The notes: generated by a model from the letters alone, not told the origin. Numbered from the stretch's first letter, positions 3,211-50,121 are shown. The stretch is 64,000 nt of DNA from an uncultured Bacilli bacterium (GCA_947627225.1 CANQVB010000001.1:564-64563); one strand, 5' to 3'. Numbers and translations: made by a program.

Positions 3211-3997
3211 TGCGGTAAATATCCTTTATTAAATCTCTTACATCTTGATGATGGGAAAGCGTAATTTGTTTTTTCTTTTTGACACAGTGGATAAAAGCAA
3301 GGGATGTGGGAAGTTCTATTTGATTTCTTTTTAAAAGTGTTGCTTGCTTAAAAACTTCTTCCACTGAACCAGAACAAACAATCCTTCCTTTTCTTAAAAA
3401 AATGACATTGTCTGCATATTGATAAATCTTGTCTACATCCATGGTAGAAAACACAATCGTTTTCTGATATTTTTCTTTGAGTTTTCGAAAAACTCCAATG
3501 AGTTTTTTTTGATAATGTAAATCGAGCTTTGCAAAAGGATCTTCTAAAAGAAATACCTCTGGATTTGCAAGCAGTGACACGGCAATTTGAAGTAGTTTTT
3601 GCTCTGTCTCAGAAAGCGTTGTAATGGCTTTAGAAAGTGAAGATAAGGGCAACCCTACAATTCGAAGCGCATCTTGTATTTTTTTAAAAGAATTTTGACA
3701 AGGAACTTTCAATTCCCTTAAAAAGTAAAGTAGATACTCTTCCACAGTAGAAAGATAAGGAAGCAACAAAAATTGTTCTGGAACAAGTGCTATTTTCTTT
3801 TGATAATACGCTTGATTTTTACGTTCTTTTTTGATTCCATCCAAATAAATAGAACCTGCTTTTTTTTCTTCTAAATGTAAAATGCAAAACAAATCGTGAC
3901 TTTCCTTTAGAGAAAGCGCTGTTATCTTTCCACTTTCAATGCAAAAATCAAGTTTCTGAAAAGCTGTCGTGCTTAAATGACTTACTCTTATTTCCAT
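3203..3997 (-). CDS. ABC-type ATPase-like protein with degenerate nucleotide-binding motifs (EcfA2-like position)
   Basis: An ABC fold is indicated by the signature-like LSETEQ and a Walker B FLLEDP. The Walker A P-loop is absent (KESHDLFCIL where GxxGxGKS/T is expected), and the H-loop His appears replaced (STMD). Confidence 0.5.
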   Translation of the reverse strand: MEIRVSHLSTTAFQKLDFCIESGKITALSLKESHDLFCILHLEEKKAGSIYLDGIKKERKNQAYYQKKIALVPEQFLLLPYLSTVEEYLLYFLRELKVPCQNSFKKIQDALRIVGLPLSSLSKAITTLSETEQKLLQIAVSLLANPEVFLLEDPFAKLDLHYQKKLIGVFRKLKEKYQKTIVFSTMDVDKIYQYADNVIFLRKGRIVCSGSVEEVFKQATLLKRNQIELPTSLAFIHCVKKKKQITLSHHQDVRDLIKDIYRNV

Positions 3998-10589: not shown

Positions 10590-10653
10590 CCTTCCTATTC
10601 TATTCTAGTATAAAGATACCACAAAAAAGAAAAGAAGGAAAGTATAAGTTCAT

Positions 10654-10795
10654 TTGAGTTTCGGTATTTTTTTTACAACAGTTGCAAAATTAGTCAATAA
10701 ATATCAATAGAATGCAATAAAGACAAATTGTTTAGTATCCATAACATTTTTTTATTGCTATTTCAATAATTCTATAAATTTTACCGGAACTCAAA
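10654..10795. repeat. MITE-like 142-bp element copy 1, with 13-bp imperfect terminal inverted repeats (TTGAGTTTCGGTA / TACCGGAACTCAA)
   Basis: The sequence is near-identical to copies at 12940..13081 and 13091..13233. It is flanked by the direct repeat ataagttcatttg at 10643..10655 and 10795..10807. Confidence 0.6.
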
Positions 10796-11599: not shown

Positions 11600-11916
11600 A
11601 CTGTATTATATCAACACATTATTTCTAAATTTTTAAAAATTTAGAAATTTCGTGTCTTTTTGCAGTATCTATAATATCATAAAAATTTATTCTTGACAAA
11701 TCTTAGAATGTCATTTTTTTAAATACTCATTATATTTTTAACAAAACTATTATTTTAGACATGCATATTGGCTTGGCAATATGCATGTGTGTTTTCTAAA
11801 TTATCAAAATTTAATATAAAAATGATTGTGCAAGAAACAAACGTTTGATATAATTGCTTCAGGAACATTTAATAGTTGGGTGATTGCCAAACTTCATAAA
11901 GAAGGGAGGCGTTAGC

Positions 11917-12000
11917 ATGAATAAGAAGGATTTTTTAATTCTATCTTTAGTAATTCTTATCTTCCTATTAATATTACTACTATTTATAGTTTTAATATAA
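11917..12000 (+). CDS. Small hydrophobic peptide (27 aa, MNKKDFLILSLVILIFLLILLLFIVLI), putative type I toxin (module P1)
   Basis: The SD AAGGGAGG lies 8 nt upstream of the ATG. The peptide is a single predicted TM helix with a KK-D N-terminus. It has three paralogs in the window, with conserved flanks including a TATAAT -10 element upstream. Confidence 0.4.
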   Translation: MNKKDFLILSLVILIFLLILLLFIVLI

Positions 12001-12002
12001 AA

Positions 12003-12085
12003 AGAAAATCACCTAACTCAGCAATGATTTAGGTGAAACCAAAATTATATTGGCAACACTCAACATGCGATATTGAATGTTCCTT
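12003..12085 (-). ncRNA. Putative antisense sRNA (antitoxin RNA candidate) convergent to the P1 small ORF
   Basis: A minus-strand promoter-like TATAAT lies at about 12090..12095 (top-strand attata), preceded by TTGTCA. A conserved roughly 80-nt segment ends at the hairpin tcacctaa...ttaggtga (12009..12035) followed by a U tract on the minus strand. The whole arrangement is conserved in all four modules. Confidence 0.3.
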
Positions 12086-12269
12086 TTTTATTATATGCAA
12101 GTTTCCTTGACAAATACACCATAACATAAAAACGCACTTTTATCAAGTACGTTATCTATTTTTTACTCGAATTTTCCGAGTTTGGTATCTATCTGGTGGA
12201 ATTAATGAAACTAAAAACAAACTATTCTATTTTTCGTGATGGATTTCTTATCGTTGTACCACTAAATAA

Positions 12270-12492: not shown

Positions 12493-12698
12493 ATATTTAT
12501 CCTTTCTGATATTTATAATAAGTATGTTATCATATTTGCCCATTGTAAAAAGACAATGGGCAAGTGTGTTTTTCTAAATTGTCACAATTTAATATAAAAG
12601 TATTGTGCCAAGAACAATTGTTTGGTATGATTATTTTAGGAACATTTGATGTTGAGTGTCTGCCTCCAATCTTTTACAAGAAAGGGGGATTGATAAAG

Positions 12699-12791
12699 AT
12701 GAAGAAAAGAATTTTTATAATAAAGATTCTTCGATACATTGCTATCATTTTATTTCTCCTATCTTTATTGGTAGCGATAATAAAAAAATGA
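12699..12791 (+). CDS. Small hydrophobic peptide (30 aa, MKKRIFIIKILRYIAIILFLLSLLVAIIKK), putative type I toxin (module P2)
   Basis: The SD AAAGGGGGA precedes the ATG. It is a paralog of the 11917..12000 peptide with a conserved upstream leader and promoter (TATGAT -10) and a conserved downstream antisense-promoter block. Confidence 0.4.
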   Translation: MKKRIFIIKILRYIAIILFLLSLLVAIIKK

Positions 12792-12875
12792 CACTCTTTC
12801 AACGCTGAACGAGTGTCGTAACTCATAATGAGGCGACATTCACTTTCGGAATTGAATGTTCCTCTTTTTTTATTT
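12781..12875 (-). ncRNA. Putative antisense sRNA convergent to the P2 small ORF
   Basis: A minus-strand -10 TAAAAT with upstream TTGTCA lies at about 12880. The transcript would end at the hairpin gacactc...gagtgtc (12790..12818), followed on the minus strand by a U tract that overlaps the sORF stop codon. Confidence 0.3.
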
Positions 12876-12939
12876 TATGCAAGTTCCCTTGACAAATACA
12901 CAATAACATAAAAAAGAACTTTTTGCAAGCTCTCTATAT

Positions 12940-13081
12940 TTGAGTTTCGGTATTTTTTTTACAACAGTTGCAAAATTAGTCAATAAATATCAATAGAATG
13001 CAATAAAGACAAATTGTTTAGTATCCATAACATTTTTTTATTGCTATTTCAATAATTCTATAAATTTTACCGGAACTCAAA
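12940..13081. repeat. MITE-like 142-bp element copy 2
   Basis: It has the same 13-bp TIRs and near-identical internal sequence as copy 1. It lies in tandem with copy 3 and is preceded by ctctatatt. Confidence 0.6.
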
Positions 13082-13090
13082 CTCTATATT

Positions 13091-13233
13091 TTGAGTTTCG
13101 GTATTTTTTTTACAACAGTTGCAAAATTAGTCAATAAATATCAATAGAATGCAATAAAGACAAATTGTTTAGTATCCATAACTTTTTTTTATTGCTATTT
13201 CAATAATTCTATAAAATTTTACCGGAACTCAAA
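13091..13233. repeat. MITE-like element copy 3, in tandem with copy 2
   Basis: It is near-identical to copies 1 and 2. The 9-bp ctctatatt precedes both tandem copies, and an imperfect tctctatatc follows copy 3. Confidence 0.6.
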
Positions 13234-13489
13234 TCTCTATATCAAAGTCCGAAAAATTTCTCAATCAACATCTACAAATTTAGTGAATGAATTGTTCTCA
13301 TATTGCATGCAAGTCGTGAACGACAAAAATGTAATGCCAGCCTCTTGTTTCGTTTATTCTCTAGACAAAGAATAAATAGATCCTATTGTTATGAACCTTT
13401 TATTCTTCTTCGTAGGAAAAAGAAGATAGGCGTTGTACTTTCCTTAGATATCAAATCTTGATAACTCGCGAACTTAACAAAAAAGGATT

Positions 13490-15679: not shown

Positions 15680-16720
15680 TTATTTATGTGTTCCTAAATT
15701 ATTCTTACTACCAAGTGCATGAAAGTCAGGTATCGTTACTTCACTTGCCAATCCATCTTGAATACCAGGATTTAAGTATTCAAGTGTTTGCATACTCACT
15801 TCATTTGCTTTGGCAAAATCAGAAAGACGCATAGTCGCATCATACGGTACTTCATGCAAGTTTTCCTCTAAAACATCATTGTCAACAAGATATGGGATAA
15901 TCACTGTACCGGATGAAAAACTTTCATTATTTTCTTCTAAATCTAAGACATTTACCCCATACGTTTCGGCAATACTTTCCCAAGTTTCTAAAGCTGGATC
16001 GATAGAAACCTCTCTATAAAGATAGGTATTTTCGTCCGTTGCTATTTGATCGATTACTGCATTTAGATTCGCTGAATGATTTTCCTGTTCAGTGGTTTGT
16101 AAAAATCGAAGCTCTGCTTTGTGTTGACGATAACCCTTTATCATATTAAAACCACCTGCTACTATAAAAAGTGTAGTCGTAGCAATTGTAAGTCTTTTAA
16201 TGAGATGTCGTTTTTTCTTTTCTTTCTTTTTTTTCTTTTTAGGAGAAGCTTCCTCGACTTTTTTGCTTAATTCTTCATTACTAGCCAGTAGCTGTTTATT
16301 TTGTTCAATCAGTTTTGATAGATAGTTTTCTAAAAAAGTTTGCATGTCAGGGTTAGCTGTTTGTTTATCGGAATCAGTAGAATTTTTAGGAGGAGTTGTT
16401 TTCTCATCTTCGAAATCATCAGATTCTAAATCTTCCATATCTGAGCTTTCCGTTGGCTCTTGTGGATCAACAGTACCTTCAAAAGTCGCTACTTCCTCAT
16501 CTTCGAAATCATCAAGTTCTAAATCTTCCACATCAGAGCTATCCGTTGGCTCTTGTGGATCAACAGTACCTTCAAAAGCCGCTACTTCCTCGTCTTCGAA
16601 ATCATCAAGTTCTAAATCTTGCTCTTGTTTTTGGTTGGAATCACCTTTCCTATTTTTTCTCATCTGATTGATTTCTTCTTCCATTTCAGGATGAAGAATC
16701 TTAAAATAATCTTTTACCAT
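15680..16720 (-). CDS. Membrane-anchored protein with an acidic tandem-repeat N-terminal region and a C-terminal LysM-like domain
   Basis: The start is taken at MVKDYF, which is preceded by AGGAGA; the track ORF extends upstream to 16942. It contains 31-aa acidic repeats (LELDDFEDEEVAAFEGTVDPQEPTDSSDVED), a K-rich stop-transfer followed by a TM segment, and a LysM-like C-terminal segment. Confidence 0.55.
   Translation of the reverse strand: MVKDYFKILHPEMEEEINQMRKNRKGDSNQKQEQDLELDDFEDEEVAAFEGTVDPQEPTDSSDVEDLELDDFEDEEVATFEGTVDPQEPTESSDMEDLESDDFEDEKTTPPKNSTDSDKQTANPDMQTFLENYLSKLIEQNKQLLASNEELSKKVEEASPKKKKKKEKKKRHLIKRLTIATTTLFIVAGGFNMIKGYRQHKAELRFLQTTEQENHSANLNAVIDQIATDENTYLYREVSIDPALETWESIAETYGVNVLDLEENNESFSSGTVIIPYLVDNDVLEENLHEVPYDATMRLSDFAKANEVSMQTLEYLNPGIQDGLASEVTIPDFHALGSKNNLGTHK
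16407..16630. repeat. 93-bp tandem repeat, about 2.4 copies, inside the CDS
   Basis: Near-identical units start at 16407, 16500 and 16593 (tcttcgaaatcatca...gctacttcctc). They encode the acidic 31-aa repeat. Confidence 0.8.
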
Positions 16721-37420: not shown

Positions 37421-39424
37421 CTATTTTCTAGTTAAAGTCTTTACTTTATCCTCTGCCATTATATCACATTTTTGTGTATATCTACCGTTCTGATTCAAAA
37501 TAAATTCTACATTATGTAGTTTGCCATCTTTTACTTGAATATAACCAGATGTCTGTTTAGACATTTTATTCTTATCTTTTTTTAGTGTTGTTGGAGAATA
37601 CGGTAACATTAAATCGTGAACAGAATATGCTGCTACTTCAACTTCATTCGGTAAGAATTGCTCTAATTCTTCGTTCATTCTTTCCATATTATATTTTTTT
37701 TCGTCCTCAGATACATGGGAATCCCAAACAATATGCGCTACTAAACTGTTATTATTTTCTTCTGTTGGCATTGGTAAGACCACAACGTCATGGATAAAGC
37801 TATTTTCTCTTATTTTATTTTCAACATCAAATAAATATAATTCTTGTTCATCTGATAATTGAATTGAATCATTTAGTCGTCCCCAAACATAAAGAAATCC
37901 ATTCTCATCCATTTCAACTATATCACCAGTTTTAACCCATCCATCTACTAAAGCCTGTTCTGTTAACTCTTTCTTATTATAATATCCCTTCATTTTAGAT
38001 TTGGCTTTTACTCTTAATTCTCCTCTTTGGTTATAAGACAATTCATTACCATTTTTATCAAATACACCTGCGATCATACCAGCTTGTACTGCTCCAACAG
38101 TAGCAATAGGTTTTGAATAATTATGTTCAACATCAACTCTATCAATACTTATTCCGGAAAAAGTTTCTGAAAGTCCATACCCACCATATATTCCACTCGC
38201 ATGACAAGAATTCATTATATCATTCCATTTTTCAAAACTTTTATTATTGGTTCCTTCTCCACCAACCATCCAACCTTTTGCATAACTAAAATCAAATTTT
38301 TTTCCTTGTTTCATCTCTTGTGTAATACGATTAAAAAATGCTTCCCACATACTGCTAGTATTGATACAAATATTGGGTTTTAATTTAACTAATTGATTAT
38401 AAAAATCGTTTTCTGAAACTCGTGGATCAATAATAACTGTTGCTCCATTCATTAGTGTAACAAGGAATAAAGAATTTAAAGATGTTGATGCTGTTGGTGG
38501 AAAGTGATTCAATGTTCTATAGCCTTTTTTATATGGAATGTCAGAATATGTTGTACTATAAACTTGTGAAATCACTGATTCGTTTGTTGCTATTACACCT
38601 TTTACAAGCCCTCCCGTAGTACCACTTGAAGAAGTTATAACTGCATTTCTATTTTTTTCAAATGGAACTTTAACTTTACCTGTGTAATAATCTGCAATTT
38701 CACGCGCTTTATCTATCCATATATATTTTTTATCATCAGGTATTTTTGTTTTATTTTTCTTTGCTTGTATACTATTTATAAATGATACAATTTCTTTTTT
38801 AGGGCTTGGCATATCTGCTGTTACAGTTGCTACAATTACTTTTTTGAATTTATCTTTTGAAAATTCTTCTCTAACATTTTGCCACATTCCATCAAAAACG
38901 ACTGCAATCTTTGCCTCTGTTGTTTCTTCTTCTAATGCTTCTTTACTCATAGCTAGTTTTAAGAAATATGGACAAGCTCCTATCATATTAAGTGCAAAAA
39001 ACATAGCACATATATCAGGTACAAATGGTCCATATATTGGAACAATTTCATTTTCTTCTACACCCATTGCTCTAAATGTTCTAGCCCATGTATAACATAA
39101 ATCTATAAATTCTTGCTTTGAAAAAATCTTTCCAAAATATTCAAGTGCTGGTACGTCATAGTACTCTAATAATTTATCTTCTATAACATCCCAAACAGTC
39201 TTATTAACAGGAATATTGTTTGCTAAGTTTTCTGCTCCTTTTTTATAATTTTTCAACCACACTTTATCTATGGATGGATATCCTGTTAATCCTTTTGAAA
39301 AATATGCTTCCTGCTCTTTAGAAACATTCAATATTTTCTTTATTTCCTCTACTTTTTGAATATTTTTACTTCTTACCGCTTCTTTTAAATCTTCTTTTAA
39401 CTTAGCGTATAATTCTTGATTCAT
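37421..39424 (-). CDS. AMP-binding (adenylate-forming) enzyme family protein with a roughly 100-aa N-terminal extension
   Basis: It has the core motif TSSSGTTGGLVKGV (SGTTGxPKG-like) and a C-terminal GWVKTGDIVEMDENGFLYVWGR. The 667 aa length is long for this family. It is co-oriented with the hybrid kinase immediately downstream. Confidence 0.65.
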   Translation of the reverse strand: MNQELYAKLKEDLKEAVRSKNIQKVEEIKKILNVSKEQEAYFSKGLTGYPSIDKVWLKNYKKGAENLANNIPVNKTVWDVIEDKLLEYYDVPALEYFGKIFSKQEFIDLCYTWARTFRAMGVEENEIVPIYGPFVPDICAMFFALNMIGACPYFLKLAMSKEALEEETTEAKIAVVFDGMWQNVREEFSKDKFKKVIVATVTADMPSPKKEIVSFINSIQAKKNKTKIPDDKKYIWIDKAREIADYYTGKVKVPFEKNRNAVITSSSGTTGGLVKGVIATNESVISQVYSTTYSDIPYKKGYRTLNHFPPTASTSLNSLFLVTLMNGATVIIDPRVSENDFYNQLVKLKPNICINTSSMWEAFFNRITQEMKQGKKFDFSYAKGWMVGGEGTNNKSFEKWNDIMNSCHASGIYGGYGLSETFSGISIDRVDVEHNYSKPIATVGAVQAGMIAGVFDKNGNELSYNQRGELRVKAKSKMKGYYNKKELTEQALVDGWVKTGDIVEMDENGFLYVWGRLNDSIQLSDEQELYLFDVENKIRENSFIHDVVVLPMPTEENNNSLVAHIVWDSHVSEDEKKYNMERMNEELEQFLPNEVEVAAYSVHDLMLPYSPTTLKKDKNKMSKQTSGYIQVKDGKLHNVEFILNQNGRYTQKCDIMAEDKVKTLTRK

Positions 39425-39774: not shown

Positions 39775-41305
39775 TTCCTATAAAACTTAAACTATCATGG
39801 ATAGATAGATTTTACACAGAAATTTTTACACTCTCTATTAATGCTCAATATCATCTTTTTTATTTTCATTTAAAACTTTTTCTACTTCACTAATTAATTG
39901 TTCTTTATCAGGAATATAGTAAGTATAAGTAGAAGCAAAAATATTATTGGATAAGCCACCTAAAGCAAACTCTAACATTATATTATCTTTTTCAGCACAT
40001 AAAATGATACCAATAGGTTTTCCATCATCTTCTGAATTTACAACTTGTTCGTAATAGTTTAAATACAAATTCATTTGTCCTAGATTTTCTGCTTTAAGAT
40101 TATTCATTTTCAAATCAATTAGTACATATGATTTTAAAAATTTATTATAAAATACCATATCGACATAATAGTCTGTATTATTAAGTGTAATTCTTTGTTG
40201 TGTTCCTACAAACATAAACCCTTTACCAAGTTCAAGTAAAAAATCTTCAATGTGTCTTATTAGTTTATATTCCAAATCTTTTTCTAAAATTGGCTTTTGC
40301 TCTTTGATTCCAAGAAATTCAAAAACATAAGGTTGTTTAACAATATCACTAGGTTTATTTAAAATTTGACCTTCTTTTGATAACGCTAAAACTTTTTCTT
40401 TATTAACTTGACCATCTGAAAGAAGCAATCTTTCAAATAATGAAGTATCTAATTGTCTTTTTAATTCTCTTACAGACCAATTTGAATTAATACATTCTTT
40501 TTCATAAAAATTACGTTTATCTTTGTCCTTAATAATCATTAATTCACAATAATGTGACCAACTTAATTTTTCATTTAATTTCTCAAAATTTGGATAAACT
40601 TTATAGAAAACTCTCATATATTTTAAATTAGATATAGAATATCCTTTTCCTAAATATTTAGTAAGTTCATCTGATAAGCCTTTTAAAATTTCTTTGCCAT
40701 ATTCTAATCGGTTGTTAAATTCATTTTCATTTGAGACTATTATTCTTCCTATATTCCAATACACATAAATAATAGATTTATTGATCTCATTAGCTAAATT
40801 AGATCTAACTTCTTCTACTAAATTAGTAATTTCTTGAATCATTTTATTGTTGCGTTTTTCTAGCATAATTGCTCCTTTCTAAATTAGTCAGACGCGTCTG
40901 GCCAATCTTTTTTTATTTAAAATTTTAATAATATTTTATCATATAAATTGCTAAATGGTGTTAATATGAGTTAATTTTTCGATTGTTTTGTTTATGACAA
41001 AATTATTAACCCCTAGGAATTTTGACAAATATATCAAAATAATCCTATGTGGATTTTATTGAAATAAAAAATCATCTCATTTAGAGATGAAATATATTTG
41101 AATGTTCAAAAAGTTCGAACAGATTCGCTAGTGGAGCGAATGCTTGTTAGGCTATGAACACCCAACAAACATAAAATCCATAATTATTTGATGTTACAGT
41201 TCAGATGGAATACAACAAAAATTAGGTAGAAATTAGCTTATCCAAAGTCTGTAAAAAAATCTGTGTAAAATCTATCTATCCCTGATAGATTCAGTTTTAT
41301 AGGAA
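39775..41305. mobile_element. 1.53-kb cassette bounded by 57-bp imperfect inverted repeats (about 52/57 identical) and carrying a single DUF1016/YhcG-type gene
   Basis: Left IR at 39775..39831 is ttcctataaaacttaaactatcatggatagatagattttacacagaaatttttacac. The reverse complement of 41249..41305 is ttcctataaaactgaatctatcagggatagatagattttacacagatttttttacag. Confidence 0.4.
39838..40866 (-). CDS. PD-(D/E)xK nuclease domain protein, DUF1016/YhcG family
   Basis: The N-terminal region IYVYWNIGRII...EYGKEILKGLSDELT...GKGYSISNLKYMRVFY and the C-terminal YVDMVFYNKFLKSYVLIDLKMNNLKAENLGQMNLYLNYY are collinear with YhcG-like proteins. Confidence 0.75.
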   Translation of the reverse strand: MLEKRNNKMIQEITNLVEEVRSNLANEINKSIIYVYWNIGRIIVSNENEFNNRLEYGKEILKGLSDELTKYLGKGYSISNLKYMRVFYKVYPNFEKLNEKLSWSHYCELMIIKDKDKRNFYEKECINSNWSVRELKRQLDTSLFERLLLSDGQVNKEKVLALSKEGQILNKPSDIVKQPYVFEFLGIKEQKPILEKDLEYKLIRHIEDFLLELGKGFMFVGTQQRITLNNTDYYVDMVFYNKFLKSYVLIDLKMNNLKAENLGQMNLYLNYYEQVVNSEDDGKPIGIILCAEKDNIMLEFALGGLSNNIFASTYTYYIPDKEQLISEVEKVLNENKKDDIEH

Positions 41306-41371: not shown

Positions 41372-42907
<1,536 letters not shown>

Positions 42908-47320: not shown

Positions 47321-48493
47321 TTACTTTAAATTCCAGATTGCATCTTCAATTTCAAAGTAAAGATCTCCTTTTATACCTTTCAATTGATTATTTCCAACAA
47401 TCTTAAAACGATATTCATCTCCATTAGATCTCACATAAATTAACTGATCATAATACAATGTGAAACTTCCTGTTGTATCATAATTTCCTGTTGTAAACAC
47501 TTTAGATAAAGATGCCGAACCATTATTATTTAAGACAAGTAAATAGTCACCATAAGCATAGGTTCCATATTGAACACTATAGTTCTTATTTGAAATTTTT
47601 GTACTATCTTTCTCCAAGTTGTTGTCTTTTATGTTTTGAATTTCTCCTTGAATTCGTTCTTCTTCACTACTGCTTACATAGCTTTTTTCTTCTTTATATT
47701 TTTTATCTAATCGTTTTAAATCACTCTCTAAATTCTTTTCTGAAATAGTATACATATCTACTGTAATTGTAGCTTTAATATAGGTATAATTAAATTCTTC
47801 ATCATCGATGTCATATTCATGATTTTCATCTTTATCTTCAATTTCTTCAATATCACTTTTTTCACTAATAATATCAAGGATTGGTAGATATTCTACGCCC
47901 TCATAATCCTTTGTTTCAATATAGTAAGCATAATCTTCATTCTCAACATCGTACAAAATACTTAGAAAATATAGTGGATATTCTTCGCTTTCTCGAACTT
48001 CATCTCCATGAAGAGATAAAATTTTCAAAGTGGATTGCTTTCTATCATTTAAATATTTGAGTACAAGTTCAGGTTCTTTGTCTTTTTCAAAATCAATCAA
48101 AACACCTTCAATATCGTCTTCTTCCAAGATGCCTTCTTCTTCAAAGTAGTCTTGGTATTTTTCAAGATAATTCTTTTCCTGCACTTCTTCTACTTTATTT
48201 TGTTCGATAGGTTCCTTCTTAGGACGCATACTGCCAAACCAAATTGCAACAGCAACAGCAATTATAAGTAGAACTGCCACTGAAATGGACACAATCAAAA
48301 TAATCATATTTTTATGACTTTTTGGTTTGTCATCTTCTGTTTTAGAAACTTCTTTTTCTTTTTTTATTTCTTCTTTTTCTAAAGTTTCTTCCTTCTTTTT
48401 TTCACTTTTCTTGGACTCTTCTAAAGCTTTTCCACAACTTTTACAGAATTTAGAATCTTCCTTTACTTCTTTCCCACAATGAGGACACTGCAT
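47321..48493 (-). CDS. Zinc-ribbon domain-containing membrane protein (paralog 3)
   Basis: The N-terminus MQCPHCGKEVKEDSKFCKSCG is followed by a K/E-rich linker, one TM segment and an acidic 300-aa ectodomain. Confidence 0.55.
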   Translation of the reverse strand: MQCPHCGKEVKEDSKFCKSCGKALEESKKSEKKKEETLEKEEIKKEKEVSKTEDDKPKSHKNMIILIVSISVAVLLIIAVAVAIWFGSMRPKKEPIEQNKVEEVQEKNYLEKYQDYFEEEGILEEDDIEGVLIDFEKDKEPELVLKYLNDRKQSTLKILSLHGDEVRESEEYPLYFLSILYDVENEDYAYYIETKDYEGVEYLPILDIISEKSDIEEIEDKDENHEYDIDDEEFNYTYIKATITVDMYTISEKNLESDLKRLDKKYKEEKSYVSSSEEERIQGEIQNIKDNNLEKDSTKISNKNYSVQYGTYAYGDYLLVLNNNGSASLSKVFTTGNYDTTGSFTLYYDQLIYVRSNGDEYRFKIVGNNQLKGIKGDLYFEIEDAIWNLK

Positions 48494-48687
48494 TTTTCTT
48501 CACTCCTTCATCTATTCTCTATAGCCTATTTTATGTATATACAAGCAGAAAGTCAAGTATGAAGTAAATTTTTCTATTGCTTTAAAGGGAACACTCTCTA
48601 ACTTATTTGAAATCATAAGAGGATTGTCAAACCAATTTTTTTGTGTTATTATGTATTTGTCAAGGATACCTTGCATAAAATAAAAAG

Positions 48688-48769
48688 GAACATTCAATAT
48701 GCCGTGTTGAGTGTAGCCAATGTTTGGTTCCACCTAATTCAAAGCAGTTGAGTTAGGTGGATTTTTTTT
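48688..48769 (+). ncRNA. Putative antisense sRNA convergent to the M1 small ORF
   Basis: A plus-strand TTGTCA...TAAAAT promoter-like element lies at about 48652..48681. A conserved block ggaacattcaatat...gttgagtgtagcc is followed by the hairpin ccacctaa...ttaggtgg (48730..48760) and a T8 tract. Confidence 0.3.
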
Positions 48770-48851
48770 ATATCAATACTATAAAAAGTAAAAATAATAA
48801 AAGGAAGATAATGATAATTAAAGATAGTATTAAAAAATCTTTCTTATGCAT
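48768..48851 (-). CDS. Small hydrophobic peptide (27 aa, MHKKDFLILSLIIIIFLLLFLLFIVLI), putative type I toxin (module M1)
   Basis: The SD GGGAGG precedes the ATG. The peptide is near-identical to the 11917..12000 peptide, and the whole roughly 350-bp module is conserved. Confidence 0.4.
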   Translation of the reverse strand: MHKKDFLILSLIIIIFLLLFLLFIVLI

Positions 48852-49033
48852 TCTCTCGCCTCCCTTCTTTTAGAGAAGTTTGGCTCCACCCAACTTATTC
48901 AATGTTCCTAAAATAATTATAGCAAACGTTTGTTTTTGAAACAATGCTTTTATATTAAATTTGAACACGCTTGATAAAAGTGCGTTTTTATGTTATGATG
49001 TATTCGTCAAGGGAACTTGCATAAAATTTAAAA

Positions 49034-49120
49034 AGGAACATTCAATATCGCCTGTTGAGTGTTACTATATAATGTGCATCACCTAAATCATTATGCTTGA
49101 GTTAGGTGATTCTTTTATTT
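49034..49120 (+). ncRNA. Putative antisense sRNA convergent to the M2 small ORF
   Basis: The arrangement matches M1: a TAAAAT -10 at 49022..49027, then the hairpin tcacctaa...ttaggtga (49079..49109) followed by a T-rich tract. Confidence 0.3.
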
Positions 49121-49198
49121 TAGAATTACAAATAGCAATACTATAAGTAAAAGGATAATGATTATCAAAAAGAAAATTAGAAAATCTTTTTTTGACAT
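49115..49198 (-). CDS. Small hydrophobic peptide (27 aa, MSKKDFLIFFLIIIILLLIVLLFVILK), putative type I toxin (module M2)
   Basis: The SD GGGAGG precedes the ATG. It is the fourth paralog. Confidence 0.4.
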   Translation of the reverse strand: MSKKDFLIFFLIIIILLLIVLLFVILK

Positions 49199-49374
49199 CT
49201 TTTCACCTCCCTTCAATTCAGAAGCTCGGCAATCACCCAACTATTCAATGTTCCTAAAACAATCATAGCAAACGTTTGTTCTTTTAGCAACAACTAAATG
49301 ATTAAAAATAATACACATAGATGACACACTGTAATAACCTTCCTGTATGTTTTTTCTTGCCAAAAACAGTTACA

Positions 49375-50121
49375 TTAAGATTCTTTTAACTTGCTTTCTC
49401 CTGTTTTGTAATCGATTTCAATCCCTTGCTGTACATTATAGACAAAGACATTAAAGGAAATACCTTCTCCCTGATCTTCAATAGAATATGCTTCCATTTG
49501 TACCCCGCTTGCAAGTAGATTGGTTCCCTTAAAATAGGGCGTAACTCGATATAAAACATGATGATTTGTTTCTTTAATATAATTGGCTACTTCATTTTCA
49601 AAGGGAAGTTGTGATTTTGTATTCATTTCTCTTGTACACGTAATTAAGTTCTTGGCGTTGGCATTTTCTCCAGTTAACTGATAACCAATCAAGTGACAGC
49701 GATTATAAAGATATTTTCCGTCGACAATATCATACTTAATCGTATGCCATCCAGAAGGTTTAACCATTCCGATACTTCCTCTTTCTTCCTGTGGCATCAA
49801 TTCTTTAGATAGATTCGCAAAAGCAGGTCCACAACGACCTAGGGAATCTAAGTTGCTATAATTTTCAAGTGCATTCAAAGTCTTCTCTTCTTCCTTAAAT
49901 TGTGGCTGATTATCATTTAAAATAACATAAGGCTCTCCAAAATACTCTGGAATGTCACTGATCGCATAAGATTTTTGTAAAGTTGGTTCAAAAACAGGGC
50001 GCAATGCTTCTTGTAAATCTTTTTGATAATAACTTCCCAATCCCAAAAGAATGAGTAAACTGATAGGCACCGCCATTTTTTTTATGATTCTCTTCTGTTT
50101 ATATCGCCTATGTCTTGCCAT
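49375..50121 (-). CDS. Secreted DNA/RNA non-specific endonuclease-like protein (streptodornase/Endonuclease_NS_2-like)
   Basis: It has an N-terminal basic region and TM/signal (MAVPISLLILLGLG). The central KPSGWHTIKYD...YNRCHLIGYQLTGENANAKNLITCT resembles secreted phage or streptococcal DNases. This assignment is from memory of the family. Confidence 0.45.
   Translation of the reverse strand: MARHRRYKQKRIIKKMAVPISLLILLGLGSYYQKDLQEALRPVFEPTLQKSYAISDIPEYFGEPYVILNDNQPQFKEEEKTLNALENYSNLDSLGRCGPAFANLSKELMPQEERGSIGMVKPSGWHTIKYDIVDGKYLYNRCHLIGYQLTGENANAKNLITCTREMNTKSQLPFENEVANYIKETNHHVLYRVTPYFKGTNLLASGVQMEAYSIEDQGEGISFNVFVYNVQQGIEIDYKTGESKLKES

Follow-up and report, generated by a model that had tools for sequence, protein, structure and literature searches.

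A 64,000-nucleotide (nt) stretch of DNA from an uncultured Bacilli bacterium (GCA_947627225.1 CANQVB010000001.1:564-64563; hereafter, the window) carries, within 48600–49330, two adjacent modules of ~340 bases, M1 (48613–48962) and M2 (48961–49298), which lie head-to-tail on the minus strand and repeat the layout of another pair, P1 and P2, at 11.8–12.9 kb. Each module is predicted to combine the gene for a small hydrophobic peptide with a separate antisense RNA gene, and we consider it likely that the modules represent a new family of toxin–antitoxin systems belonging to type I, with the 3′-overlap layout of Gram-positive bacteria. Sequence analysis supports the two convergent genes, their overlap, a clamp between the two ends of the peptide mRNA and a base-paired ribosome-binding site, and toxicity, transcription and nuclease dependence would follow by analogy with Gram-positive type I systems. 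Our literature searches turned up neither this family nor any type I system reported from this uncultured gut Bacilli lineage.

Searching the window with a profile of the family returned exactly four copies, namely M1, M2, P1 (11797–12175, plus strand) and P2 (12575–12949, plus strand), each a self-contained cassette of ~350 bp. M1 and M2 are 80–81% identical to P1 over 317–333 nt (E = 1e-71 to 1e-78) and 69–70% identical to P2. The motif GGAACATTCAATAT occurs on the plus strand at 48687 and 49035, with its inverted partner at 48895 and 49241. When up to two mismatches are allowed, the motif and its partner match the window eight times, compared with 1.3 matches expected, and none of 100 shuffles reached eight; seven of the eight matches fall inside the four modules. 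A possible fifth copy at 39321 was rejected, as it consists of a one-mismatch motif match without support from the family profile. A sequence-only reading of this DNA had proposed that the pairs are paralogous small-peptide/antisense-RNA modules, with the M1 and M2 peptides on the minus strand, and had named AT-rich low complexity as the objection to be met by alignment. The shared architecture and the four profile copies bear out the proposal, and the two open reading frames (ORFs) lie where it placed them. Aligned nucleotide by nucleotide, the promoter hexamers, ribosome-binding site, ORF, hairpin and end-pairing blocks correspond position by position across the modules; their similarity is far above chance, and low complexity is not its cause.

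Species-representative genomes were scanned with a 23-base pattern taken from the 3′ end of the module, which gave at least 120 loci. From the 120 listed loci, 111 distinct modules were obtained, a set that is biased towards copies keeping the antisense leader and the 3′ arm described below. On the peptide strand, a module begins with an extended −10 promoter (TGnTATAAT), followed by a predicted transcription start at AGGAACAUU, a leader of ~55 nt that ends in GGGAGG, and the ORF. On the 3′ side of the ORF lie a hairpin that has a T-tract on the opposite strand only and then a block that closes with AAUGUUCCU; this block is complementary to the first ~30 nt of the mRNA itself, and a U-tract comes after it. 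The final part of the module is the conserved block TATGCAAGnnnCCTTGACAAATACA..ATAACATAAAAA. Read on the opposite strand, this block holds a promoter (TTGnnA, 17 nt, TG-n-TATnnT), after which come a 5′-terminal hairpin, an A-rich linker, a stretch complementary to the clamp arm, and a terminator.

The product encoded by M1 and M2 is predicted to be a hydrophobic single-pass membrane peptide of 27 amino acids (aa). Across the family, the peptides split into two classes, the length being constant within each: class A (P1, M1 and M2), with the consensus M-x-KKDFLI-(hydrophobic)19-20 and 27 aa, and class B (P2), with the consensus MK(T/K)(K/R)TF(I/V)(I/V)KVL(K/R)(L/Y)IAIILFLL..VVIKK and 30 aa. The earlier description of the four peptide cores as diverged is therefore true of P2, which represents a second conserved class; P1, M1 and M2 form a single class, and the M1 and P1 peptides are 81% identical. 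Both consensuses are devoid of Trp, Pro and Gly, and the tail consists of 0–2 Lys. The pN/pS ratio is 0.31 for class A and 0.48 for class B, and variability at codon position 2 is far below that at the other two positions (entropy by position in class A, 0.69/0.18/0.76). Judged by this pattern of substitution, the ORF is evolving as a coding sequence. The promoter of the peptide mRNA has a weak −35 element; 92 of the 111 members have a −10 element (TAnnnT) that precedes the GGAAC-like 5′ end by 4–9 nt, and in 65 of those it reads TATAAT. In the predicted mRNA, the ribosome-binding site is mostly base-paired (unpaired probability 0.08–0.30). Eight exact peptide variants were looked up in a collection of 15 billion proteins and none was present, which indicates that these peptides are not called as genes.

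The antisense promoter is better than that of the peptide mRNA, with a near-consensus −35 element and an extended −10 element. An arrangement of TTGnnn, 16–18 nt and TG-n-TAnnnT is found at the right distance in 106 of the 111 modules, with the TG extension in 105, and this −35/−10 pair lies outside the bases fixed by the 23-base search pattern. In M1 and M2 it lies on the plus strand, as had been proposed, and the best promoter is situated upstream of the conserved block GGAACATTCAATAT...GTTGAGTG, some 40 nt beyond it. Every one of the 111 modules has a hairpin just after the stop codon (mean −13 kcal/mol), which is represented by 77 distinct sequences; 94 modules have its U-tail on the antisense strand, compared with 2 that have one on the peptide strand. 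The stems are wholly different between the classes (CACCUAA/UUAGGUG versus GACACUUAAUUC/GAAUUAAGUGUC) and the pairing is always kept. The plus-strand hairpin and T-tract noted in the sequence-only reading are supported as the antisense terminator. The predicted terminator is thus one-way: it serves the antisense strand and ends on the last codons of the ORF.

The antisense RNAs of the four window copies have fold z-scores of −3.3 to −5.8, and each is predicted to overlap the 3′ untranslated region (UTR) of its own mRNA with 87–97 nt of perfect complementarity, which reaches the stop codon and includes the whole 3′ clamp arm. The M1 antisense RNA is predicted to consist of a 5′ hairpin (GUCAAGG..CCUUGC), an A-rich linker, a stem-loop (ACAUUCAAUAU/GUGUUGAGUGU), a small hairpin and the terminator. 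Together, the promoter, the terminator and the fold argue for a genuine antisense gene with putative transcripts of these dimensions. An ORF on the antisense strand, MLWCICQGNLH..., was considered and set aside; it would begin within the −10 element, at an ATG upstream of the predicted start, and M1 does not keep its frame.

A unit of ~350–430 bp that is 80–93% conserved between genomes in unrelated flanks could also be a non-coding mobile repeat, similar to a miniature inverted-repeat transposable element (MITE) or a repetitive extragenic palindromic (REP) element, in which the hairpins and inverted repeats serve as signals for transposition or structure and the ORF is there by chance. Alignments between the window and the listed loci are indeed confined to the module, with 80–93% identity, the unit does contain an internal 26-nt inverted repeat, and true MITE-like repeats adjoin P2. 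We nevertheless give this explanation almost no credence. The inverted repeats are internal, lying 70–110 nt from the unit ends, where a MITE would have terminal ones, and the ORF is under coding selection: both peptide classes show the codon-position pattern, a fixed length and a strong ribosome-binding site. Two oriented promoters and the one-way terminator are conserved as well, the family pattern was not found in viral contigs, and blastn against plasmids and phages gave no match.

A further feature of these modules is the predicted clamp of the peptide mRNA. In the minimum-energy fold, the two ends pair with each other in each of the four window mRNAs and in 93 of 93 intact family copies, the first ~30 nt pairing with the last ~40 nt and the U-tract following directly. 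The duplex energy of cognate arms is −35.0 ± 3.0 kcal/mol, compared with −12.3 kcal/mol for shuffled arms, and non-cognate arms give −31.5 kcal/mol within a class and −25.4 kcal/mol between classes. Because cognate arms pair better than shuffled or non-cognate ones, the two arms co-evolve. RNAalifold recovered only six clamp pairs from MAFFT alignments; the clamp was therefore scored by per-sequence duplex energies and by a hand-specified core of 16 pairs, the registers of the two classes differing by one alignment column. In this core, 94.6% of the cells are paired, compared with 34–49% in slid registers. Changes on both sides of a pair number 25, and none of 500 shuffles was equally good. 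Diverged copies that were found through the peptide alone show the same behaviour, with GGAACAUU/AAUGUUCC replaced by GGAAUAUUU/AAGUAUUUCC on both sides together. This family-wide covariation, with the one-way terminator and the codon-position pattern, upholds the earlier claim that selection acts on both the RNA elements and the peptide.

The block GGAACATTCAATAT...GTTGAGTG had previously been placed in the antisense RNA, which is correct; it is, in addition, the complement of the mRNA 3′ arm that pairs with the mRNA's own 5′ end. The antisense RNA is an exact complement of the 3′ arm and so carries a near-copy of the mRNA 5′ arm, with which it must compete. In class A, the antisense stem-loop formed by ACAUUCAAUAU and GUGUUGAGUGU contains three G–U pairs, which correspond to A–C mismatches on the mRNA strand, so that the mRNA would favour the long-range clamp; its local 3′ hairpins are weak (−6 to −8 kcal/mol). 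Pairing between class A paralogues is predicted to be partial (−81 to −105 kcal/mol, compared with −155 kcal/mol for cognate pairs). The coordinates of these features are collected in Table 1.

Table 1. Features of modules M1 and M2 and of their paralogues P1 and P2, in window coordinates; all RNA ends are predictions from sequence.
Feature	Position	Strand	Remarks
M1 peptide-mRNA promoter	48916–48944	−	Predicted; −35 TTGTTT at 48939–48944, 17-nt spacer, TGC and −10 TATAAT at 48916–48921
M1 predicted peptide (toxin) mRNA, ~229 nt	48681–48909	−	Starts with AGGAACAUUGAAU at 48909; ends in U-tract after AAUGUUCCU; fold −69 kcal/mol
M1 5′ clamp arm AGGAACAUUGAAUAAGUUGGGUGGAGCCAA	48879–48909	−	Duplex with own 3′ arm −32.6 kcal/mol; inverted repeat I1
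M1 Shine–Dalgarno GGGAGG, 7 nt before ATG	48859–48864	−	Predicted mostly paired (unpaired probability 0.09)
M1 ORF, 27 aa, MHKKDFLILSLIIIIFLLLFLLFIVLI, class A	48768–48851	−	
M1 antisense intrinsic terminator	48729–48769	+	14-bp hairpin TCCACCTAA...TTAGGTGGA at 48729–48761 and T-tract; overlaps last ORF codons
M1 mRNA 3′ clamp arm	48686–48727	−	Complementary to the antisense RNA's conserved block AGGAACATTCAATATGCCGTGTTGAGTG
M1 antisense promoter	48624–48652	+	TTGTCA, 17 nt, TG-n-TATTAT; 10/12 consensus matches, TG present
M1 predicted antisense (antitoxin) RNA, ~110 nt	48659–48769	+	Fold −37.4 kcal/mol, z = −5.8; 88 nt perfectly complementary to M1 mRNA
M2 peptide-mRNA promoter	49262–49290	−	TTGCTA, 17 nt, TG-n-TATGAT
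M2 predicted peptide mRNA, ~227 nt	49029–49255	−	5′ arm 49225–49255, 3′ arm 49034–49075; clamp −26.4 kcal/mol
M2 ORF, 27 aa, MSKKDFLIFFLIIIILLLIVLLFVILK, class A	49115–49198	−	Shine–Dalgarno GGGAGG at 49206–49211
M2 antisense promoter	48971–48999	+	TTGATA, 17 nt, TG-n-TATGAT
M2 predicted antisense RNA, ~115 nt	49006–49121	+	Terminator hairpin 49078–49110 (I7) and T-rich tail; z = −3.6; 92 nt perfectly complementary
P1 paralogue, class A	11797–12175	+	mRNA ~11861–12093; ORF 11917–12000
P1 antisense RNA	~12111–11997	−	Its promoter 12146–12118
P2 paralogue, class B peptide MKKRIFIIKILRYIAIILFLLSLLVAIIKK	12575–12949	+	ORF 12699–12791; mRNA ~12638–12872
P2 antisense RNA	~12893–12786	−	

A terminator-like hairpin with a T-run also lies just upstream of the peptide promoters of P1 (11759–11788, plus strand) and P2 (12531–12568, plus strand), inside the unit that is conserved between genomes. 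These hairpins may insulate the cassette against read-through.

These features suggest the following course of events. The clamp would hold the full-length mRNA in a stable form, with both ends hidden from exonucleases and translation quiet. The abundant antisense RNA would first pair with the mRNA at the complementary hairpin loops and would then displace the mRNA 5′ end from the 3′ arm, because a perfect duplex is more stable than a clamp containing wobbles and loops. The resulting long antisense–mRNA duplex would be a substrate for RNase III, the freed 5′ end would allow the mRNA to decay, and the peptide would not be made. Were antisense transcription to stop, the stable mRNA would be translated, and the hydrophobic peptide would damage the membrane. 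A more elaborate version, which we put forward tentatively and regard as rather doubtful, is that the 5′–3′ helix and the U-tract constitute the intrinsic terminator of the toxin mRNA, so that termination and closure are one event for which the transcript needs its own 5′ end, that the antitoxin RNA is a mimic of this 5′ end which invades the clamp and exposes both ends, and that cross-pairing within class A links the copies in a network. If this version is true, clamp displacement would be a mode of type I antitoxin action that has not been described for known families.

Convergent genes with a 3′ overlap are the rule among Gram-positive type I systems (PMC4147584, PMC8594479), and the closest match in layout is the group that contains TxpA/RatA and BsrG/SR4, together with BsrE/SR5, YonT/SR6 and SprG/SprF, of Bacillus and Staphylococcus. 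The overlap is 75–120 nt in that group and ~90 nt here (PMC4147584, PMC8594479). As in TxpA/RatA and BsrG/SR4, the predicted antisense RNA stays clear of the ribosome-binding site, which is sequestered, and the product is a small hydrophobic membrane peptide; decay that depends on RNase III would be expected by the same analogy (PMC4147584, PMC8594479). By contrast, no sequence or covariance-model similarity links the two, the peptides here are shorter (27–30 aa versus 38–59 aa), the modules were not found on prophage-like sequence, and the target of the antisense RNA is one arm of a co-evolving 5′–3′ mRNA clamp.

The par system of the Enterococcus faecalis plasmid pAD1 (Fst / RNA I–RNA II, of the Fst/Ldr group) shares with the modules its convergent promoters, complementary terminator-region hairpins from which a kissing interaction may start, tandem chromosomal copies, an intramolecular helix in which the toxin mRNA's extreme 5′ end is sequestered, and a stem that hides the ribosome-binding site (PMC7472228). 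Fst/Ldr toxins are recognized by a conserved Trp between the transmembrane helix and a charged C-terminal tail and by a P/D/S/T-XXX-G motif (PMC7472228). The peptides here do not show this signature: the PXXXG motif is missing, and so is a Trp ahead of a charged tail. The terminator is one-way here and bidirectional in par, and the antisense RNA is ~110 nt long here and ~40–65 nt in par. Moreover, the end repeats of par are direct (DRa/DRb, the antisense 5′ end being complementary to the toxin translation start), whereas those of the modules are inverted (I1), so that the 5′ part of the antisense RNA here resembles the mRNA 5′ end and is not its complement.

Closure of the full-length toxin mRNA by a long-distance 5′–3′ interaction is also known from hok/Sok of plasmid R1 and aapA1/IsoA1 of Helicobacter pylori, and the closed hok and aapA1 mRNAs are translationally inert (PMC6733600, PMC8594479). 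In those systems, the hosts are Gram-negative, the 5′ region is the pairing site of the antisense RNA, and 3′ trimming is required for activation; here, the antisense RNA is predicted to pair with the 3′ arm of the clamp. The peptides show no homology to Hok (HokA, E = 0.1, 12.7 bits versus a cut-off of 89), and no leader ORF comparable to mok in Hok/Sok is conserved. The likeness of the clamp to Hok/Sok is thus a resemblance in mechanism only.

Several observations weigh against assignment of the modules to type I toxin–antitoxin systems or limit what can be drawn from them. The polar or charged C-terminal tail common among type I toxins is missing from the class A peptides. Searches of Rfam, Pfam and NCBIfam revealed no homology to known toxin or antitoxin families: the whole window gave no Rfam hit at gathering thresholds, 48550–49400 gave only noise in E-value mode (BsrG, 12.2 bits versus a gathering score of 55), and five peptides had no significant match in Pfam and NCBIfam. 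The antisense 5′ end is ambiguous between two candidate promoters, which place the M1 start at ~48659 or ~48685. The 23-base search pattern fixes part of the 3′ arm and of the antisense leader, and the conservation of those bases is partly circular. Finally, when the 3′ UTR was blocked in silico, the accessibility of the ribosome-binding site rose from 0.15 to 0.30 in class A and fell from 0.12 to 0.08 in class B. Allosteric or translational control by the antisense RNA was rejected on account of these opposite shifts; with no consistent change in accessibility, translational control is unsupported and we infer only the decay route.

On the other side stand several traits by which type I systems are generally recognized and which the family displays: a short ORF (the limit being 60–70 aa) for a hydrophobic transmembrane peptide, under coding selection, a separate predicted antisense gene, frequent tandem copies and a patchy, non-syntenic spread. 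Nearly all of the listed loci lie in metagenome-assembled genomes (MAGs) that come from the guts of rabbit, mouse, chicken and other animals and bear the label uncultured Bacilli, Tenericutes or Erysipelotrichaceae; the caecum of rabbit, mouse or chicken is a habitat of the host clade. Neighbouring genes vary, and in 26 of the 120 listed loci 2–4 copies are found within 8 kb, nearly always in the same orientation.

Coding selection and an antisense gene would fit equally well with a harmless small membrane protein, such as an accessory or regulatory subunit, that is tuned by a cis-antisense RNA and has no toxin–antitoxin behaviour. The uncharged C terminus of class A is in keeping with such a protein, and the toxicity that we propose rests on analogy. 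We consider this alternative unlikely, as the genomic context is variable and non-syntenic and offers no constant partner gene, single genomes carry several tandem copies, decayed and insertion sequence (IS)-disrupted copies exist, and much is invested in silencing the mRNA, through pairing of the ribosome-binding site, through the clamp and through the stronger promoter of the antisense gene. Variable context, tandem and decayed copies, and mRNA silencing are typical of selfish or toxic modules and not of a housekeeping subunit.

The commonest neighbour is a MacB-like (MacB/FtsX-type) ABC transporter, present at 18 of the 120 listed loci. This association suggests another role for the peptide, as an exported leaderless hydrophobic peptide of the bacteriocin or surfactant kind, for which the transporter would provide export or immunity and the antisense RNA an expression switch. 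Such a role is very improbable, given that 85% of the listed loci, and all four window copies, have no neighbour of this type, that no immunity or modification genes are present, that the peptide is nearly all transmembrane segment, and that the RNAs are arranged as in type I systems.

The family also includes copies in various states of decay, for which the counts are biased by the search pattern. About 15 modules have lost promoter and leader together with the beginning of the peptide gene and keep the 3′ UTR and the antisense gene (L007:4078–4313, L018, L024, L032, L033, L035, L053, L060, L081, L090, L091, L097, L099, L100:2223–2463 and L107); we regard these as orphan-antitoxin-like remnants. 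A few fragments keep only the 5′ half. At locus L016, a member is split in the ORF region into two parts (1215–1409 and 3304–3499) by an insertion of ~1.9 kb that encodes a 604-aa transposase of the ISL3 family (Pfam DDE_Tnp_ISL3, E = 5e-24). The halves correspond to profile coordinates 8–203 and 195–390, and their overlap of ~9 positions suggests a target-site duplication. A distant class A-like module at L026 (4655–4807, plus strand; MSKKDFLITVLLIIIILLISLLWNFI) keeps the clamp (GGAAAUAUUGUGAC / GUUACAAUGUUUCC); its antisense promoter region is a different one and sits immediately ahead of the clamp-mimic sequence. The family thus extends beyond what the search pattern captures.

The modules add a well-supported candidate type I family with two peptide classes to an uncultured gut Bacilli lineage, in which the peptides are missed by gene callers. 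The 111 natural variants offer a ready mutational data set for the 5′–3′ clamp, the one-way terminator and the antisense pairing, and the cassettes give annotators of MAGs a marker for small repeated accessory elements.

The inverted pairs, 36 kb apart, had been suggested as a substrate for a large chromosomal inversion. Homology-dependent (RecA-dependent) recombination requires a minimal processing segment and strongly penalizes mismatches. The inverted copies are 80–81% identical, with longest exact runs of 21–28 bp, near or below that minimum, which makes them a very poor recombination substrate and the inversion idea weak. The four window copies are ordinary paralogues of one family and provide no evidence for a large invertible segment. 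No close relative of the window genome was found: none of the 120 listed loci shares the window flanks, the endonuclease protein encoded near M1 and M2 was not on record when looked up for this purpose, and a metagenome scan with the zinc-ribbon protein gave only an N-terminal match of 29% identity.

The neighbours named in the sequence-only reading are present, namely two zinc-ribbon membrane proteins, one of them encoded at 47321–48493, a non-specific endonuclease (Endonuclea_NS_2) and a YoeB fragment. The last lies between P1 and P2 (12270–12543, minus strand), where the C-terminal 38 aa match Pfam YoeB_toxin (E = 4e-6); an adjoining ORF of 58 aa has no hit, and the two together are probably a frameshifted pseudogene. 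A MITE-like repeat of ~145–160 bp occurs in three copies that are 97.5–100% identical (10652–10795, 12938–13081 and 13082–13242), two in tandem directly after P2 and one upstream of the gene next to P1. Elsewhere in the window, a 56-bp inverted repeat (39775–39830 and 41250–41305, 91% identical) surrounds an ORF (39838–40866, minus strand) for a YhcG/DUF1016 PDDEXK nuclease (Pfam E = 7e-55), and gene and repeat may form a small mobile or accessory unit. The stretch 41372–42874 (minus strand) holds a 500-aa ORF with runs of collagen-like G-x-x triplets, in which 42128–42523 contains internal repeats of ~170–200 nt with 68% identity. A direct repeat at 16400–16620 (93.8% over 128 bp, with a 93-bp offset) comprises ~2.4 copies of a 93-bp unit.

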